Shown here one piece after another: positions 1 through 38,055 of a stretch of DNA of 38,055 nt (the first letter of the stretch is position 1; every line of letters starts with the position of its first letter). The DNA lies in UHGV virus genome UHGV-0022456. The stretch is one strand, 5' to 3'. The stretch is from a virus. The notes beneath the pieces are model-generated. The model searched no databases. It had not been told where the DNA came from and saw only the letters and a list, made by a program, of their open reading frames with translations. Position numbers and translations under genes: made by a program.

Positions 1-20
1 ACCCGCTTCGGCGGGTTTTT
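1..20 (+). terminator. Rho-independent terminator-like hairpin at window edge
   Basis: ACCCGC(1-6)-TTCG-GCGGGT(11-16) stem-loop followed by TTTTTCATCTTTT; the gene it would terminate lies outside the window. Confidence 0.45.
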
Positions 21-47
21 CATCTTTTACGCAATCTGTTACAATTC

Positions 48-61
48 CTGGAATATTCCAG
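48..61. promoter_or_regulatory. Perfect 14-bp palindrome CTGGAATATTCCAG, candidate operator
   Basis: 48-61 equals its own reverse complement; located between the hairpin at 1-20 and the SD/ATG at 115. Confidence 0.35.
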
Positions 62-114
62 TTATTCACTCAAAGACAGGCGTGTACCCTATAGTAGGAA
101 GAAAGGGGGTGCAT

Positions 115-432
115 ATGCCAAACAGGATGAACATGTCTACACTCGAAGAGCGACTGACGAAAGTTGAGACTAATCTTGCGAACCTTGCAGATGCACAAAG
201 GGATGTGGGCCAGGCTCTAAATCGGGTGTCGGAGTCTATCCACGCCATCCAGATAAGCATTGAGCGACAAAACTCCAGCATTCAGAAGATAGTTGAATTG
301 CGACGTGACGTTGATGAAATGTCGAAGGATGTAGAGAAGCTAAAAGGGAAGGTGTGGTGGCTAGGCGGCGTGACTGCCGCCTGTACGTTCATTATTGTGA
401 ACTTCTCGCGCCTGAAAGACTTCTTTCACTGA
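115..432 (+). CDS. Hypothetical coiled-coil protein with C-terminal transmembrane segment
   Basis: Track ORF 82-432 trimmed to ATG 115 preceded by AAGGGGG; heptad-rich N-terminus; hydrophobic C-terminus VWWLGGVTAACTFIIVNF. Confidence 0.5.
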   Translation: MPNRMNMSTLEERLTKVETNLANLADAQRDVGQALNRVSESIHAIQISIERQNSSIQKIVELRRDVDEMSKDVEKLKGKVWWLGGVTAACTFIIVNFSRLKDFFH

Positions 433-9502: not shown

Positions 9503-11251
9503 ATGAAACAGCCACGCCCATATCAACAGGAAGCCATTAACTCCACTATCGAGGAGATTAAAAAATATGCCAAGCAGGGGAAATCAGCCCACCTGATTAT
9601 TGATGCAGGGCCTGGAGCGGGGAAGACATTGCTTATGGCTTTTTTGGCTAAGCATGTATTTGAGAGAGGTGGCCGTGTTGTGCAACTGGCTCGCCAGCCG
9701 ATACTGGCAAAGCAGAACTATGACGAGATGTACGAGTGCGGCATACCAGCCGCGCTTTACGCAGCAAAGTTCAACCGCCGTCAGGTTGCGCAGGTTACTG
9801 TTGCAACGGAGGGCACAATAGCCAATTCTCTGCATGACATGAATAAGCCGGTGGATCTTCTACTTTTGGATGAGTGTCACACTCTTAGTCCGGATGATGA
9901 AGATACGCAGATGAACACTATCATTCGACACCTGGATGATGTGACTACAAAAGCCGGCAGAAAGATGCACGTTGTCGGCCTCACGGGAAGCCCGTTCCGT
10001 GGGGTTACTCCATTAACCAGTTTCGATTTCTGGCACGATACGGTATTCAATATTGGCACTGATAAGCTGACGGAACTGGGTTACTTGTCAGTTCCTGTTT
10101 TCGGGTTCGCCGATGCCGATGATGATGCCCTGGACTTCTCCGGCGTAAACACTCGCAGCGGCTCATGGGAGTTCAGCGAGAAGGAACTCGACGAAATCGC
10201 CATGTCCGACGCAGGCAAGAAAAAACTTGTCCGCATTCTGATGCAGGTCATTGAAAAGACCAAAGACCGAAATCAGCGGATAGTCTTTGCATCTACCAAG
10301 CGACACGCCAGGGAGATTCGCCGCATCCTGATTGCCCTGGGCATCGACAAAAGCAAGATTGGCCTTGTCACTGACGATTCCAGCGAGGCAGAGAAAGACC
10401 GCGTTATCAAGCTGTCGAAGGAAGGCAAATTAGACTGGCTGATTAACGTGTCGGTGCTGACCACTGGCTTTAACTCGCCCCTGATTGACGTGGTGGTGTA
10501 CCTGCGCCCGATTGGTTCACTGGTGTTGCTGATTCAGTCAATGGGGCGAGGTGCTCGCCTGCTGGAAGACTGGATGAAAGAGGCTGGATTCCACAAAGAG
10601 AACTATCTGGTGCTGGACTATGCCGGGGTATTCGACCGGCTGGGGCATTTGCTGGATGACCCGACTACCGGCGAGGCGCTTGCTCAGCGTGATAAGTCTC
10701 GCGGAGAAGATAAACCATGCCCGCGCTGCCATGAGATGAACAGCAAGGCGGCTCGTCGCTGCCGGGCAAGGGATGAGTCTGAGCCTGATAAACGCTGTTC
10801 ATTTTTTTGGACGTCACAGATTTGCCCCGACTGCCAGACTGAAAATGACATTGCAGCTACTGAATGCCGTAATCCGTCATGCAGGCGAGAACTAAGGGAC
10901 TCAAATAAGGCTCTGCTGCATCATCCGTATTCAGATGAGGAAATGGTTGGCGTTAAGAAGATGGACGTGCTGAATACGAAAGGAGGTGCGCTAATGGTGC
11001 GCTTCACCCTGGAAGGCGACGAGCGACAACCGTACCTGATATTCCCGATGGGTGGCGATTTATCGAGGCGCATTCTGAAAAAGGAATTTGTCGATGTGTA
11101 CGTACAACCTGGCTGGCGCGGAAGGGTGGCGTCCATGAAAACAGCCGAGCAGATTGTGAAGATGGCGGGCGCATTCATGACGCCGAAGGCTATCGCATAC
11201 CGCATCAACGGCAATAACAAATATGTAGTTGGTCGCAGGAAATTCTCATGA
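9503..11251 (+). CDS. SF2 DEAH-box DNA helicase with C-terminal zinc-ribbon region
   Basis: Track ORF 9473-11251 trimmed to ATG 9503; Walker A GPGAGKT; box II LLLLDECH; C-terminal CPRCH...CRARD and CPDCQ...CRNPSC. Confidence 0.75.
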   Translation: MKQPRPYQQEAINSTIEEIKKYAKQGKSAHLIIDAGPGAGKTLLMAFLAKHVFERGGRVVQLARQPILAKQNYDEMYECGIPAALYAAKFNRRQVAQVTVATEGTIANSLHDMNKPVDLLLLDECHTLSPDDEDTQMNTIIRHLDDVTTKAGRKMHVVGLTGSPFRGVTPLTSFDFWHDTVFNIGTDKLTELGYLSVPVFGFADADDDALDFSGVNTRSGSWEFSEKELDEIAMSDAGKKKLVRILMQVIEKTKDRNQRIVFASTKRHAREIRRILIALGIDKSKIGLVTDDSSEAEKDRVIKLSKEGKLDWLINVSVLTTGFNSPLIDVVVYLRPIGSLVLLIQSMGRGARLLEDWMKEAGFHKENYLVLDYAGVFDRLGHLLDDPTTGEALAQRDKSRGEDKPCPRCHEMNSKAARRCRARDESEPDKRCSFFWTSQICPDCQTENDIAATECRNPSCRRELRDSNKALLHHPYSDEEMVGVKKMDVLNTKGGALMVRFTLEGDERQPYLIFPMGGDLSRRILKKEFVDVYVQPGWRGRVASMKTAEQIVKMAGAFMTPKAIAYRINGNNKYVVGRRKFS

Positions 11252-11736
11252 TTACTCAAGAAGAGCTAAAGAAGGCATTGAATTACGATCCATTAACTGG
11301 AATTTTCACCAGGAATATGAGGGCATCAAATCAAGTTCCTGGACAAGTTGTTGGCTCTAAAGATAGCGGTGGTTACTTGGTTGCAATGATTAACGGGAAA
11401 AGGTACTCACTACACAGGATGGCCTGGCTTTATTTTTATGGAAGGATACCAGTTGGAGATATAGACCACATAAACGGCGTTAGGGACGATAACCGAATTG
11501 TAAACCTCAGGGAATGCAGCCGTAGCAAGAATTGCATGAACAAAAAGATAAATAAAAACAACATGTCAGGAGTTAAAGGGGTTGGCTGGCATAAGCAAAG
11601 CGGCAAGTGGAGAGCAAGGATAATGATAGACGGAGAGTCTATTCATATCGGTGAATTTAAATCAATAGGTGATGCCGAGTCAGCAATATCAGAAGCAAGA
11701 GATAAAATACATAAGCAATTCGCGAGGCATTCATGA
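11248..11736 (+). CDS. HNH endonuclease with AP2-like DNA-binding domain (paralog 1)
   Basis: HRMAWLYFYG...DHINGVRDDNRIVNLR HNH core followed by SGVKGVGWHKQSGKWRARI AP2-like segment; AT-rich; ATGA overlap with helicase stop. Confidence 0.7.
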   Translation: MITQEELKKALNYDPLTGIFTRNMRASNQVPGQVVGSKDSGGYLVAMINGKRYSLHRMAWLYFYGRIPVGDIDHINGVRDDNRIVNLRECSRSKNCMNKKINKNNMSGVKGVGWHKQSGKWRARIMIDGESIHIGEFKSIGDAESAISEARDKIHKQFARHS

Positions 11737-12451: not shown

Positions 12452-12958
12452 ATGTTTCACCCAACAGGTCTAAGTCACGATGAAATATGTAGTCTTTTTG
12501 ACTACGACCCAGAGACAGGAGAAATAAAGAGAAAGTTCAAGGTTAGAGGCTCAAGATCTGATGGTAAAACAGGGGGAATGGGCGGACACAAGTACATAAG
12601 GATAGGATTCAGAGGTTTTAGGATTTACGCGCACAGGCTTGCATGGTTCATCTATCACGGTCATCTGGACCGGGACATTGAAATAGACCACCTGAATGGA
12701 AATGGATATGACAACAGAATTTGCAACTTAAGGCTTGCCACTAGCCAGCAAAATTCATTCAACATAAAAAAACATGCAGATAATCAATCTGGTTATAAGT
12801 GGGTTTACTTTGACAAAAGAAGGCAGAAGTTTTCTTCAAGGGTTTCAGTTAACGGAAGGTCAATGTTTCTTGGTTACTACATAAACCCAGAGGATGCACA
12901 TATGGCGGCGCTAAAGGTAGCCATGGCAGTGCACAAAGAATTTTTCAGGAGCAAATAG
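12452..12958 (+). CDS. HNH endonuclease with AP2-like domain (paralog 2)
   Basis: HRLAWFIYHG...DHLNGNGYDNRICNLR then SGYKWVYFDKRRQKFSSRV; AT-rich; GAGG SD. Confidence 0.7.
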   Translation: MFHPTGLSHDEICSLFDYDPETGEIKRKFKVRGSRSDGKTGGMGGHKYIRIGFRGFRIYAHRLAWFIYHGHLDRDIEIDHLNGNGYDNRICNLRLATSQQNSFNIKKHADNQSGYKWVYFDKRRQKFSSRVSVNGRSMFLGYYINPEDAHMAALKVAMAVHKEFFRSK

Positions 12959-12959
12959 C

Positions 12960-13901
12960 ATGAACTACTTACCAGCACTAAAACCAGCACATGATTTGAT
13001 TCTTTCACAAGAAAGTTCATTCATGTCGATACTTTCTGATGAAAAAATTAATTTTCATAAGGAAATGAATTTTGCAATGCAGCAGCTTTCAGGAAATGAC
13101 TTCTTGCTTAAAGTGGCAATGCAAAACCCACAATCACTAAAGGATGCAATATTAAACCTTGCAGCATTCGGTCTAAGTCTTAATCCTGCACTTAAGCATG
13201 CTTATCTGGTTCCAAGAAAAGGTAAGATATGCCTTGATGTTGGTTATCTTGGCATGGAATACATAGCCATAGACTCAGGAAGCGTGCTATGGGTTCAAAG
13301 CAAGATTGTTTATTCAAATGATACATATGAGTCAATGGGGATAGACAAGGCTCCAGAGCACAGATATAGCGCGTTCGGAAGTAGAGGCTCAATTGTAGGG
13401 GCTTATTGCGTTGCAAAGGTTCACGATGGCTCATTCCTTACCGAAGAGATGAATATAGAGGAAATATATAAAATAAGGTCTCGTTCTGAATCGTTCTCAA
13501 AGGGAAGCATGTCTCCTTGGAAAACTGACGAAGGCGAGATGATAAAGAAGACAGTTATAAAGAGAGCAAGCAAAGGGTGGCCGAAGTGCGACCGACTGCA
13601 AAGTGTTATTAGTTTCGCCAATGAGAATGAGGGCATTGACTTCCAGCGTGAGCGAGCACCAGTGCGCGAGAAGGCTATCAGCCCGGCAACGGAAGAGCAG
13701 GTTAAGACAATCCGTGAAGGCCTGGAGTTTATCAGCCGACCGGAAGAGGCCTTCCTGAAATACTTCTCTGGCAGCATAGCCAAGCGCGTTATTGAGTCCA
13801 TTGAGGAGCTGACCGAGGAGGAGGCAATCAAGGCTATCAGCACCATCCAGAGCATCATGGATAAGCAGGCAGAGAAGCAATCAAATAGAGAGGTATTCTG
13901 A
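12960..13901 (+). CDS. recT: RecT-family single-strand annealing protein
   Basis: 313 aa; pairs with downstream YqaJ-type exonuclease; 5' two-thirds AT-rich, 3' third GC-normal. Confidence 0.65.
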   Translation: MNYLPALKPAHDLILSQESSFMSILSDEKINFHKEMNFAMQQLSGNDFLLKVAMQNPQSLKDAILNLAAFGLSLNPALKHAYLVPRKGKICLDVGYLGMEYIAIDSGSVLWVQSKIVYSNDTYESMGIDKAPEHRYSAFGSRGSIVGAYCVAKVHDGSFLTEEMNIEEIYKIRSRSESFSKGSMSPWKTDEGEMIKKTVIKRASKGWPKCDRLQSVISFANENEGIDFQRERAPVREKAISPATEEQVKTIREGLEFISRPEEAFLKYFSGSIAKRVIESIEELTEEEAIKAISTIQSIMDKQAEKQSNREVF

Positions 13902-14434
13902 TGGGAAGGAGACCTTCTGACATAGATGATGACATGGTTTCTGAGCTTAGAGACAGATTAAATTATGACCCTAATACAGGAATTCTTACATGGAAGAAAG
14001 TCAGAAAAAGAAAACTGATAGGTTCCGAGGCTGGGTTCATGATGAATTCTGGATACATGGCCCTCAAGATTGGGACAAGAAGGATTCAATGCCATAGGGT
14101 TGCCTATGCAATAGTTAACGGAGCAATAGGTGATGGGGTAGAAATCGACCACATTAATGGTGTTAAGCATGATAATAGGATTTTAAATCTTCGTGCATGC
14201 TCTGCATCTCAAAACAGAATGAACGTAGCACTGATGAAAAATAACACATCAGGTGTTAAAGGCGTAAGTTTTTGCAGATCGAGCGGTAAATACAGGGCAG
14301 AAATAATGGTTAATTATAAATCTTACTATCTAGGAGAGTTTTCTAGCATAGATGAGGCATCAAAAGCTGTCTCATCAGTTAGAGCCAATATTCATAAAGA
14401 ATACTCTAATCATGGGGAATTCAAAAAATGCTGA
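13901..14434 (+). CDS. HNH endonuclease with AP2-like domain (paralog 3)
   Basis: HRVAYAIVNG...DHINGVKHDNRILNLR then SGVKGVSFCRSSGKYRAEI; AT-rich; overlaps recT stop by 1 nt and exonuclease start by 7 nt. Confidence 0.7.
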   Translation: MGRRPSDIDDDMVSELRDRLNYDPNTGILTWKKVRKRKLIGSEAGFMMNSGYMALKIGTRRIQCHRVAYAIVNGAIGDGVEIDHINGVKHDNRILNLRACSASQNRMNVALMKNNTSGVKGVSFCRSSGKYRAEIMVNYKSYYLGEFSSIDEASKAVSSVRANIHKEYSNHGEFKKC

Positions 14435-36365: not shown

Positions 36366-36524
36366 GTGCAATGCAAAAACTGCGGTGAGCCAATGGAAGG
36401 CGACGGATATACAGACGTAATCCACTGCCCTAATATCGCGTTACCGGCATTGGCTACGAGCCTGATGCAAACCCTGTTTACTGTGAAGAGGAAGAAGAAT
36501 GAAACTTATCGACTTACTGGTTAA
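36366..36524 (+). CDS. Small zinc-ribbon protein (GTG start, tentative)
   Basis: In frame with track ORF 36330-36524; GTG 36366 directly after previous stop with GGGAG upstream; CKNCG...HCPN. Confidence 0.35.
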   Translation: MQCKNCGEPMEGDGYTDVIHCPNIALPALATSLMQTLFTVKRKKNETYRLTG

Positions 36525-37245
36525 AGAATTGCCGAAGCGTGGTGGATGGCCTGATGGTGCGCTAAATGCCACGCAAGATAAAGATGGCCAGGTGTGCTTT
36601 TCTGCCGGTGCAGTCCCTGAATTTGGCTACGTTGCCTGGGAGGGCGGCGACTGGCTCGGGAATGAGTTTTACGCCACTAGGGCAAGCGACTACGCATATG
36701 CCATCATCACCTGCGAACAATACGAATCAGCACTGGCAGCCAGCAAAGCCGTTGTTGGCCATGACGGCTGGATTCAATGGCATGGCGGTGAGTGCCCTGT
36801 TGATAGTGACGCAATTGTTGAGGTCAAATTCCGAAATCAGAACCGGGACAAAATCAATAGTGACAGAGCCGGAGATTTTTACTGGCCGCATGATGGCCTT
36901 GGATATGACATCATCGCCTACCGGCTGCAACAGCAGACGAAATCAGAACAGGCTTGCGATGACGCTGCGGAAGCTGATGACGAAGCCGACCTGAATGAGT
37001 GCATTGGTCATGATTTTGACGTAGTTAACCATCCATCTCACTACACACAAGGCAGTATAGAGTGTATCGACGCTATTAAAGCTGCGCTAGGTGAAGAGCA
37101 ATATGAGGGGTACTTACGCGGCGCTTGCATTAAGTACCTGTGGCGATATAAAATGAAATCTGGAGTTGAGTCATTGAAAAAATCAGAGTGGTATCTGAAA
37201 AGGTTAATCGAACTTAATGAAGAGATTGAATCCAGAAACAAATAG
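36499..37245 (+). CDS. DUF3310-like phage protein
   Basis: 248 aa; C-terminal HYTQGSIECIDAIKAALGEEQYEGYLRGACIKYLWRYKMKSGVESLKKSEWYLKRLIE matches the remembered DUF3310 signature; GAGGAAG SD. Confidence 0.5.
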   Translation: MKLIDLLVKELPKRGGWPDGALNATQDKDGQVCFSAGAVPEFGYVAWEGGDWLGNEFYATRASDYAYAIITCEQYESALAASKAVVGHDGWIQWHGGECPVDSDAIVEVKFRNQNRDKINSDRAGDFYWPHDGLGYDIIAYRLQQQTKSEQACDDAAEADDEADLNECIGHDFDVVNHPSHYTQGSIECIDAIKAALGEEQYEGYLRGACIKYLWRYKMKSGVESLKKSEWYLKRLIELNEEIESRNK

Positions 37246-37930
37246 ACCTTACGTTTTGGGCGAGTACAACCCGGACACGGGGTTGTACTTCAGAGCATAT
37301 GTAAAAACCATCGTCAAATCTGATGGGTACTTTAAAGAAGCGTGGTTATCCCATGATGCTCTCGAAAGATTCATAGCTCGACAAAGGTTATCTGCCAGAA
37401 AATGTCAAATCAGGCGTAATGAGGAGAATCGTAAATGGATTAACGACTATAAAATATCAAAAGGGTGTAGCGTTTGTGGATATAAATCTCACGCTGCTGC
37501 ATTAGATTTTGACCATTTGGAAAGATCAGATAAAAAATTCACGATTGGGAGACGTTTGGGTGGATTGTCGAAAGAGAGGCTGCTTGCTGAAATTGAGAAA
37601 TGCAGAATACTCTGCGCCAATTGTCACAGGGTGAAAACTTTCGAGAATAATGAGCACGGAAGAATAAGAAATGATAATTTACTGGAGAGTGCAATAATCG
37701 AGAGTCGAATAGAAAAATCAAGACAAATAAATAAGTTCAGAAGTAAATTCTACACGACGAAAACGAAAAGTAGACTGAAAAATGTATACCTTTCAAAATC
37801 GGGATTGTACTTCGTGAGAAAACAAATCGGACGGGTAAGAACGTGCGCAGGGTGCTTTGACAACATATTCGATGCGGCATGCTGTCTGATTGGGGAGCAT
37901 CAACTGAAACCGTTATGCGATGGTGAGTGA
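37217..37930 (+). CDS. HNH endonuclease (distinct family from the HNH-AP2 paralogs)
   Basis: CSVCGYKSHAAALDFDHLERSD...CRILCANCHRVKTFEN; AT-rich; 5' end overlaps DUF3310-like gene by 29 nt. Confidence 0.65.
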   Translation: MKRLNPETNRPYVLGEYNPDTGLYFRAYVKTIVKSDGYFKEAWLSHDALERFIARQRLSARKCQIRRNEENRKWINDYKISKGCSVCGYKSHAAALDFDHLERSDKKFTIGRRLGGLSKERLLAEIEKCRILCANCHRVKTFENNEHGRIRNDNLLESAIIESRIEKSRQINKFRSKFYTTKTKSRLKNVYLSKSGLYFVRKQIGRVRTCAGCFDNIFDAACCLIGEHQLKPLCDGE

Positions 37931-37957
37931 TGAGCGGCTTAAACAATTCAACACTAC

Positions 37958-38036
37958 TTAATTGCCTACGTGAAAAGGGTGTAGAAAGGCTAAGTGGTAT
38001 CTCAACAAATTAATCTCTGAACTGGAGTCAAAATAA
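37958..38036 (+). pseudogene. Degenerate 3' remnant of a second DUF3310-like gene
   Basis: Frame A ...NCLREKGVERL, then after an apparent 1-nt loss KAKWYLNKLISELESK-stop, paralleling ...KSGVESLKKSEWYLKRLIELNEE of the intact gene; shared GTGGTATCT core. Confidence 0.35.
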
Positions 38037-38055
38037 TGGCAAGTCGTGGCGTTAA
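38037..38055 (+). CDS. 5' end of an ORF truncated by window boundary
   Basis: ATG 38037 directly after TAA with GGAG upstream; only 6 codons visible. Confidence 0.3.

Follow-up and report, generated by a model that had tools for sequence, protein, structure and literature searches.

The 38,055-nt window analyzed here, UHGV virus genome UHGV-0022456, carries near its right-hand end a DUF3310 gene, an HNH endonuclease open reading frame (ORF), and the start of an SSB gene. We consider it likely that, in this interval, a cassette made up of a free-standing HNH homing endonuclease gene and an accompanying DUF3310 allele overwrote the 3' half of the resident DUF3310 gene (Table 1). Allele comparisons indicate that a block of ~940 nt (~37048 to 37985) has replaced ~110 nt of the native gene in the window and in about a quarter of its relatives. 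This block consists of a foreign DUF3310 3' half, the HNH ORF, whose start codon lies in the DUF3310 stop region, and a spacer, and the native segment that it displaced lay between the conserved HPSHYT/IECIDAI codons and the ...SVRK codons. The host gene is now a hybrid, native up to ~37047 and of the cassette type from ~37048 to its stop codon. The last ~21 native codons persist as a noncoding relic, now serving only as the leader of the SSB gene, with a ribosome-binding site and a TAATG overlap.

A protein search with the 248-aa host gene product gave 2,285 homologues, more than 100 of them full length at 57 to 100% identity; 99 of the 120 best have a DUF3310 domain and constitute our allele set. 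The 3' half is of a native type (IDSATVGKTGIEAVAVANIIKYLWRYEEKGGLESVRKAQWYLNKLISELESK) in 69 of the 99 alleles and of a cassette type (IKAALGEEQYEGYLRGACIKYLWRYKMKSGVESLKKSEWYLKRLIELNEEIESRNK) in 26, and 4 are chimeras or have other ends. DNA was read at seven cassette-type loci, namely, the window, L010 (SRR12217736), L011, L012, L014 (GCA_008540635.1), L015 (SRR8099011), and L016 (ERR4228776), and at three native-ended loci, L001 (Escherichia phage BUCT618), L013, and L017. The same HNH, the same spacer, the relic, and the SSB gene occur at all seven of the former, and this HNH occurs at none of the latter. BUCT618, the only close relative among GenBank phages (91% identity over 85% of an 18-kb query), has a DUF3310 gene that ends in KAQWYLNKLISELESK (in a longer stretch, LWRYEEKGGLESVRKAQWYLNKLISELESK) and passes through TAATG into the SSB gene. 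L017, also HNH-less, has the same DUF3310/TAATG/SSB junction, and L013, a native-ended chimera, has a 41-aa ORF between DUF3310 and SSB (L013:3232-3357), which contains four cysteines. A megablast search of E. coli genomes gave no match and hence no prophage counterpart there. Judged from these loci, the ancestral state here is a single DUF3310 gene with a stop codon overlapping the SSB start. Because the HNH-less relatives end in the relic sequence on the SSB ATG, the relic is the native 3' end and not a second paralog.

The host gene product matches DUF3310 (Pfam PF11753) over the full model (positions 1 to 60) at aa 176 to 234 (64.7 bits, cut-off 24; E = 8e-18), and the full domain makes up its last 75 residues. 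PHROG "nucleotide kinase" families also match the product (E = 1e-21 to 1e-28). DUF3310 is found as well at the C terminus of the T7 gp1.7 nucleotide kinase and in lactococcal SaV.

Table 1. Predicted features at the right-hand end of the 38,055-nt window
Feature	Coordinates	Strand	Remarks
Host DUF3310 gene, 248 aa	36499-37245	+	Stop 37243-37245; ends ...KSGVESLKKSEWYLKRLIELNEEIESRNK and stop; variable N-terminal domain and C-terminal DUF3310
DUF3310+HNH module common with IMG/VR contig L008	37018-37890	+	93-95% nucleotide identity, different backbone
Imported 3' half of DUF3310 domain	37048-37245	+	Ends ...TQGSIECIDAIKAALGEEQYEGYLRGACIKYLWRYKMKSGVESLKKSEWYLKRLIELNEEIESRNK and stop; near-invariant, low GC, occurs in an unrelated backbone
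Identity island TACCTGTGGCG (codons YLWR)	37135-37145	+	Common to native and cassette alleles
HNH endonuclease ORF, 237 aa	37217-37930	+	ATG inside DUF3310 ORF, other frame, 29-nt overlap
Domains of HNH ORF			Nuclease core ~aa 57-150, then linker, AP2-like three-strand-plus-helix domain aa 190-225
Spacer	37894-37972	+	Last 12 HNH codons, HNH stop, and start of short leftover ORF
Relic first frame (leftover short ORF)	37927-38013	+	MMSGLNNSTLLNCLREKGVERLSGISTN and stop; GTG/ATG start at 37927
Relic of native DUF3310 3' end	37973-38036	+	...E-V, frameshift, KAKWYLNKLISELESK and stop; BUCT618 similarity, HMM
Relic second frame	37974-38033	+	KGCRKAKWYLNKLISELESK; stop 38034-38036
SSB gene start, MASRGV...	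38036-38055	+	Cut by window end

The HNH stop codon and the next gene are separated by 105 nt, the final 60 of which read as KGCRKAKWYLNKLISELESK followed by a stop codon whose last A is also the A of the next ATG (38036 to 38038, TAATG). We gauged the significance of alignments by shuffling (2000 shuffles for nucleotides and 5000 for peptides). The relic matches the BUCT618 DUF3310 3' end at 57 of 63 nt, a result equaled by none of the 2000 shuffles, and its second-frame piece is matched by a purpose-built DUF3310 hidden Markov model (HMM) at HMM positions 53 to 69 (E = 3e-5), although Pfam searches with the 35- to 36-aa relic peptides gave no match. It is recognizably homologous to the DUF3310 C-terminal helix (KAxWYLxxLI). 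Within the window, the best nucleotide alignment of the two copies (19 of 23 nt around AGTGGTATCT) was reached by 9 of 2000 shuffles and the peptide-versus-peptide score by 4 to 5 of 5000. On its own, the REKGVERL half falls short of significance (1388 of 5000 shuffles; p ~0.1 against native alleles). Self-BLAST of 36900 to 38055 against the window found no internal repeat because the two copies are too diverged in DNA, and only the comparison with relatives made the relic clear. We regard the relic as secure over ~37973 to 38036 and as plausible by collinearity over 37958 to 37972.

A preliminary description of this window had placed a diverged copy of the DUF3310 gene end at 37958 to 38036, directly against the next ATG. 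The copy does overlap the SSB ATG and is well supported over its right-hand part, ~37973 to 38036, but the REKGVERL half is not significant by itself. The alignment of the two copies that the description proposed was modest in the window and decisive against BUCT618, and the end of the DUF3310-like gene at 37245 and the HNH gene were recovered with the coordinates and frames it gave, the former with the Pfam match reported above and the latter with PHROG HNH matches and a conserved core. The case that it named as a refutation, in which 37958 to 38036 is simply the normal 5' untranslated region of the downstream gene, is contradicted by the comparison of HNH-bearing with HNH-less relatives, in which the native junction with SSB carries the relic sequence: the interval is untranslated leader only in HNH-bearing genomes and is coding in HNH-less ones.

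The relic and the spacer to its left behave differently among carriers. Relic polymorphisms (GCGCAG, GCTAAG, and GCCAAG; AACAAATTA and AATAAACTA) mirror the variation of native alleles and the spacer is constant, which places the right-hand exchange point within the relic or beyond it. The spacer is identical or nearly so in L010, L011, L014, L015, and L016 and is absent from L008 and L019; its match to native alleles is weak and collinear (p ~0.1), and it may represent an earlier portion of the relic that has decayed. The relic appears untranslatable as part of DUF3310 and would still supply the GGAG Shine-Dalgarno sequence and the TAATG for SSB. The GGAG and TAATG with which SSB is started in native genomes are both kept in its last 20 nt, and for this reason the end of the relic is conserved while the rest is eroded. 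The SSB 5' end is the same in L005, L010, L011, and L016, where the 174-aa product has PF00436, and the gene downstream of DUF3310 is annotated as SSB in BUCT618. The ATG of the leftover short ORF overlaps the HNH stop codon (GTGATGA); in L011 this ORF (L011:3892-4035) ends on the SSB TAATG, giving unbroken stop/start overlaps from DUF3310 through the HNH and relic ORFs to SSB, and it could act as a translational coupler. Neither a terminator nor a convincing internal promoter was found in the region.

The imported tail differs from the native one in both uniformity and distribution. Cassette tails have a mean identity of 98.4% (7 distinct among 22), compared with 88.6% for native tails (48 distinct among 68), and cassette alleles occur beside native alleles in 8 of the 10 divergent N-domain subtypes. 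Synonymous divergence (dS) between the window and L010 or L011 is 0.07 to 0.09 in the HNH gene and 0.35 to 0.36 in the N-domain 200 nt upstream. In a sliding profile, nucleotide identity rises from 45 to 90% to 96 to 100% near 37050, and GC content falls from ~0.50 to 0.34 to 0.42 over 37000 to 37900 (0.41 to 0.42 in the imported 3' half). The Q of HPSHYTQ (37048 to 37050) goes with the cassette in 25 of the 26 alleles, and the imported 3' half shares 97% identity with a DUF3310 that stands alone in the unrelated contig L008. Two chimeric alleles fix crossover points: L013/P0078 is of the cassette type up to TACCTGTGGCG (37135 to 37145) and native beyond it, on a contig without the HNH, and L017/P0068 switches near 37085. 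These patterns suggest that the cassette spread horizontally and recently. They include two features by which a homing endonuclease gene (HEG) is recognized, sporadic presence at one site among close relatives (26 cassette versus 69 native alleles, with BUCT618, L013, and L017 lacking it) and a co-converted tract with mosaic flanks that are less diverged than the backbone. One of the carriers, L014, is a Salmonella enterica serovar Cerro isolate assembly with a complete phage of this group, including cassette and relic, on a separate 38,291-bp contig; no gene has been called there over the intact HNH ORF.

The 237-aa HNH ORF is matched by PHROG HNH families (E = 7e-31 and 2e-25). Its CxxC...DFDH...CANCH core is invariant across 32 homologues, and the residues C84-x2-C87, D97-F-D-H100, N135, and C133-x2-C136-H137 are invariant or nearly so. 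Pfam HNH (PF01844) remained below threshold on this ORF (15.4 versus 21.4 bits; E = 0.022; aa 126 to 141 only; no Pfam hit at E = 0.01), Pfam HNH_3 and AP2 gave no detectable sequence match, and a PDB sequence search returned no true match, only a single spurious MIS12. In an AlphaFold model (pLDDT 87), the nuclease core is followed by a C-terminal domain of three strands and a helix, and the predicted fold is HNH plus an AP2-like domain. The protein belongs to an HNH lineage that was previously unnamed and has no Pfam family. Because the gene is under purifying selection (dN/dS 0.05 to 0.25), the sequence comparison argues that the protein has been functional. Degraded copies also exist, with a stop codon in the L008 HNH and a shortened C terminus in L011, and they fit the usual HEG cycle of invasion followed by decay.

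The same nuclease lineage accompanies DUF3310 genes well beyond this phage group. In a tblastn search of 50,697 phage records, the best HNH relatives (45 to 48% identity over aa 1 to 147) lie directly after a short DUF3310 or "gp1.7-like nucleotide kinase" gene. Carriers of DUF3310+HNH include the T7-like phages phiA1122, YpP-Y, and EFA-2, the KP34-like Klebsiella phages, and four further metagenomic backbones, L008/L019 (with Mu-F/portal neighbors), L007, L020/L021 (with a Thy1 neighbor), and L024; the L008/L019 cassette is 93 to 97% identical to that of the window. HNH relatives with at least 45% identity follow DUF3310 in T7-like and KP34-like phages, L007, L008/L019, L020/L021, L023, and L024. 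One nuclease lineage is thus found with one target gene across unrelated genomes, a third feature of HEGs, and in at least six phage backbones the lineage is specifically associated with genes of the DUF3310/T7-gp1.7 type. The overlap of the two genes is conserved across backbones ("...WYLxRL..NE..." and stop, with "MKR(L/I)NP(E/K)T"), and the junction is kept to the codon, with the DUF3310 end ...WYLKRLEEANEKDKP and stop and the HNH start MKRINPKTG in the overlapping frame.

The closest annotated relatives are in the gene 1.7 region of phiA1122 (NP_848270, "nucleotide kinase," and NP_848271, "HNH endonuclease"). T7 and phiA1122 are 97% identical upstream of gene 1.7 and from the beginning of gene 1.8 onward, and in phiA1122 the whole 196-aa T7 gene 1.7 has been swapped for the short DUF3310+HNH module; the HNH therefore moves together with a DUF3310 allele of its own and takes the place of resident alleles. 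As in the window, the HNH start overlaps the DUF3310 stop and the resident gene has been replaced, and the two HNH proteins are 48% identical over aa 1 to 147. In contrast to the window, the phiA1122 HNH is short and lacks the C-terminal domain, and the whole gene has been replaced, with junctions at the gene borders and no relic. The short HNH relatives in KP34 and L020 likewise have no AP2-like domain. Similar gene-end duplications can be recognized in other members of the lineage. L023 (1066-2043) has a 94-aa DUF3310 gene, a 150-nt gap with a hairpin and T-run, and a 180-aa HNH that ends by repeating the last 29 codons of DUF3310 in frame (KYRLRAGDKGDAMQDIAKAKWYQDRVRKL and stop versus KYRLRAGEKGDVIRDILKANWYRDRLNSHV and stop; 62% identical), and this looks like the clearest independent case of the same duplication. 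The L024 HNH ends with a shorter copy of the DUF3310 end (...IDEIVAKWYQEKAI...), and the L008 HNH end, ...LISELSEDK and stop, is possibly a relic of the same kind.

We envisage that, in mixed infections, the HNH protein, guided by its AP2-like tail, would cut or nick DUF3310 alleles that lack the cassette, the probable target being the stretch around YLWRY-EEKGG that is specific to native alleles (a guess from the bases that differ between alleles), and that repair would then copy in the donor cassette. Homology arms would be provided on the left by the conserved 5' half of the DUF3310 domain and on the right by the relic plus SSB. Carriers would be immune, since the cassette DUF3310 copy and the mutilated relic would lack the target, and the host gene would stay functional with a complete 3' end supplied. 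The first entry into this phage group was probably by one-sided or illegitimate repair, as the duplicated 3' end implies that the first invasion used one-sided homology with an illegitimate join on the other side. We infer both the nuclease activity and the target site from sequence.

Several points weigh against this homing scenario. A linked block could also be spread by ordinary homologous recombination during co-infection, with no endonuclease involved, and the decaying HNH copies in L008 and L011 mean that the element may be inactive in some carriers. A native origin of the leftmost 80 nt of the "relic" region cannot be demonstrated from the sequence, which leaves the original insertion point uncertain, and the relic-free loci phiA1122, KP34, L007, L019, and L020 show that a relic is not obligatory.

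It is conceivable, although we would bet against it, that the DUF3310 allele and the HNH together form a two-gene "allele-replacement drive" in phage competition. The nuclease would then recognize rival DUF3310/gp1.7 alleles of co-infecting phages from several families, with the coupled partner allele as the immunity determinant, and the start-inside-stop overlap (MKRLNP.. versus ..NEEIESRNK and stop) would couple the amount of nuclease made to expression of the protected allele. For its part, the relic would be both the right-hand homology arm for homing into new genomes and a translational bridge to the essential SSB gene via the TGATG and TAATG overlaps.

Passive hitch-hiking is a rather improbable account, in which the block is one of two old allelic cassettes moved by general phage recombination and the HNH is not the driver; on this view, the HNH could lack activity or serve some other purpose, for example, nicking during replication or packaging or attacking competitor or host DNA. 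Phage genomes are highly mosaic, chimeric alleles do exist, and the N-terminal domain of the same gene has itself been shuffled among subtypes; moreover, the nuclease activity of the HNH rests on prediction, and some copies are damaged. Nevertheless, dS about fivefold lower than in the flank and near-invariance across eight subtypes point to a recent sweep more readily than to a long-standing balanced polymorphism. In at least six unrelated backbones, the HNH lineage occupies one and the same position in DUF3310, to the codon, which is the signature of site-specific homing, and the purifying selection on the HNH also speaks against a passive passenger.

The preliminary description had offered two histories, and the comparisons separate them. 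According to the first, there were once two tandem DUF3310 genes, and the HNH replaced most of the second, leaving its 3' end. A second partial copy does lie downstream of the HNH, and DUF3310 genes are common and variable in phages, but this history is very unlikely: two DUF3310 genes were found in none of ~100 related alleles or 10 related loci, and BUCT618, L017, L013, and the 69 native alleles have a single gene, which in the HNH-less relatives ends in the relic sequence with TAATG into SSB. In addition, the copy that looks foreign (low GC, near-invariant, present in unrelated backbones) is the upstream one and not the relic. The second history, insertion of the HNH near the 3' end of the gene with a replacement end and with the original left as a relic, is favored by that single gene. 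Its "replacement 3' end" holds, but its extent was underestimated, as the whole block of ~37048 to 37985 is linked to the HNH and is larger than a 3' end. The "1-nt" difference noted in the remnant proved to be an inherited frameshift but not the sole change, since the relic is also ~12 to 13 nt short relative to BUCT618.

We find it hardly credible that the HNH sits in an intron- or intein-like insert of a split gene, with the downstream piece as the true last DUF3310 exon joined by splicing or recoding. Phage group I introns often house HNH genes, and in contig L022 a distant relative of this HNH lies between a terminase gene and a terminase C-terminal fragment. However, an Rfam search of 36400 to 38055 (E up to 1) found no intron or structured RNA and only one chance snoRNA-like match; the upstream copy is already a complete DUF3310 domain with its own stop, and the downstream piece duplicates rather than completes it and is frameshifted in five of seven carriers. 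A group I or II intron carrying the HNH ORF was rejected on the same grounds. In L022 (178-2403), the relative is 37% identical and is flanked by a large terminase gene (508 aa) and a 75-aa ORF that weakly matches Terminase_6C; a terminase gene may have been divided there, or supplied with a new end, in a comparable way.

An assembly or sequencing error in a single genome can be dismissed with comparable assurance: the frameshift sits in a short A-run (37985 to 37987, one base fewer than in L011), but the arrangement and the short run (GAAAGG) recur in the independent assemblies L010, L014, L015, and L016, each from a different sample, making five of seven carriers with the window, and the in-frame GAAAAGG variant occurs in L011 and L012, where the remnant reads MSDLNNLTLLNCLREKGVEKAKWYLNKLLSELESN and stop. 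The frameshift is therefore real and inherited, which settles the concern in the preliminary description about a 1-nt error. Judged against the in-frame version in L011, the 1-nt frameshift appears to be a later change. The nucleotides missing relative to BUCT618 fall in the EKGG-LESVRK region; the in-frame version in L011 and L012 is likewise ~12 nt short of native alleles and has no DUF3310 core before the remnant. Every carrier, those with in-frame versions included, holds a relic.

The layout has its closest parallel in fungal mitochondrial mORFs with a foreign gene C terminus, described for atp6 of Allomyces macrogynus and atp6, atp9, cox2, and nad3 of Glomus sp. (PMC3630166). These share with the window a host gene core, an in-frame foreign C-terminal segment, an endonuclease ORF, and a duplicated native C-terminal relic (PMC3630166), and the inferred mechanism is likewise cleavage of ORF-less alleles and repair from the donor. 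In both systems, it is the native relic that resembles the gene found in relatives and the inserted copy that differs; here, the relic matches BUCT618 at 57 of 63 nt, and the upstream copy has in common with the relic only 19 of 23 nt around AGTGGTATCT and matches L008 at 97%. However, the mORFs encode LAGLIDADG or GIY-YIG enzymes in organelle genomes, whereas here an HNH(+AP2-like) protein is encoded in a tailed phage by an ORF that is not fused in frame but begins in an alternative frame inside the last codons of the host gene, and the relic has been taken over as the leader that carries the ribosome-binding site of the downstream gene.

The free-standing homing endonucleases SegF, SegG, SegE, and MobE of T-even phages are known for "intronless homing" and marker exclusion, and co-conversion of flanking markers is documented for free-standing HEGs (PMC2988022, PMC2790892). 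As in those phages, the nuclease gene lies between or beside conserved genes and is sporadic among close relatives, its spread there being due to double-strand-break repair, and flanking host sequence is co-converted, so that the 3' part of the neighboring gene becomes donor sequence. The T4 genes differ in having two homologous flanks and no duplicated gene end; one-sided homing with illegitimate repair at microhomologies has been shown in T4 for intron homing (PMC2988022). Activity is proven for T4 HEGs, whereas the cassette HNH is a predicted nuclease and belongs to another, uncharacterized HNH lineage. HNH-AP2 homing endonucleases of phages, cyanobacteria, and protists, such as the ICP1 "IPA-HNH" proteins gp59 and gp209 (PMC10448857), resemble it in having an N-terminal HNH and a C-terminal AP2-type (here a putative AP2-like) domain (PMC10448857) and in lying at recombination-tract boundaries near conserved genes. 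Unlike them, the HNH core here is of the CxxC...DFDH...CxxCH type (Endo VII-like, zinc binding), with no Pfam HNH_3 or AP2 match. We found no description of a DUF3310-associated HNH or of such a gene-end relic in phages in the open-access literature, which is weak evidence, and an exact-pattern scan of IMG/VR for the relic/SSB junction found none.

Other insertions are seen around the host gene. A sister phage, L018 (Logan SRR30505337), has another HNH family at the position of window 37217 to 38036 (L018:2235-2918; 227 aa; PHROG 374, E = 7e-66; nothing above threshold in Pfam), with an AP2-like tail and an end, ...IGEQESK and stop, that runs into the SSB ATG. Its DUF3310 end is altered (WYLN followed by RLIEELSADVQNKTRR and stop, at the point WYLN/RLIEEL...), and it looks like an independent invasion of the same gene end. 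The presence of another HNH family at the same spot marks the DUF3310 3' end as a nuclease-insertion hot spot. In L013, a different HNH_3 ORF (2029-2514) lies directly upstream of the DUF3310 gene and overlaps its start, suggesting that both ends of the host gene attract insertions. The host gene itself occurs in two architectures. Most relatives and the window fuse the N-terminal domain directly to DUF3310 (230 to 256 aa), and BUCT618 (L001:3009-3890) and L005 (L005:2932-3873) have a 288- to 313-aa protein with an additional ~120-aa domain (compared with window 36499 to 37017), followed in BUCT618 by a separate 74-aa DUF3310 gene and in L005 by a small membrane ORF in place of DUF3310. The switch point is a repeated GAT(A/T)TTGA (..IGQDIDI.. 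/ MDIDVV..).

Elsewhere in the window, three HNH_3-type ORFs (11248 to 11736, 12452 to 12958, and 13901 to 14434, + strand) with 30 to 36% mutual identity are interspersed among + strand genes, one of them matching Pfam HNH_3 (E = 2e-13) and PHROG 99 (E = 1e-53). They are unrelated to the HNH at 37217 (no paralogy), and the genome therefore has at least four putative homing endonuclease genes. In L005 (4015-4700), SSB is followed by the sequence of the window start (window 1 to 120), a terminator-like acccgcttcggcgggttttt, and then a 116-aa ORF; the window is therefore almost the whole of a circularly permuted ~38.6-kb genome, with ~500 nt of SSB missing. In KP34 (L003, 1499-2090), HNH gp36 is annotated from an internal ATG, and a conserved N terminus, (L/M)KRINPKTGAPFRRGD..., lies upstream of it, starting at a TTG that overlaps the DUF3310 stop. 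After the KP34 HNH, the other frame encodes WCRKQWEAAVERGDESAAKDYLEMYNLWVSRNQ and stop, which resembles T7 gp1.8 and suggests that part of gene 1.8 accompanied the module in its transfer between T7-like and KP34-like phages. "Enterococcus phage EFA-2" (L004, MT350293.1; host Enterococcus faecalis) is a Studiervirinae genome whose 1.6/1.7/HNH region is near-identical to that of Yersinia phage phiA1122, and its host assignment looks doubtful.

We rate this case as well documented, experimentally tractable, and unsurprising to a specialist. The layout is known mainly from fungal mitochondria, and the window provides a clear phage example of it and no new type of element or mechanism. The tie between this HNH and DUF3310 should improve annotation, for example, of the start of KP34 gp36, as such genes are mostly labeled "hypothetical," and imported 3' halves will confound DUF3310 phylogenies. 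The relic and the chimeric alleles narrow the insertion and crossover points to a few dozen bases, and with ~100 sequenced alleles, both cassette bearing and cassette free, target-site mapping and homing crosses become directly testable. Overall, these loci capture, in a natural and well-replicated example, the entry of a homing endonuclease into a compact phage genome in which the invaded gene survives, with a spare gene end brought along and the old end left as a fossil.

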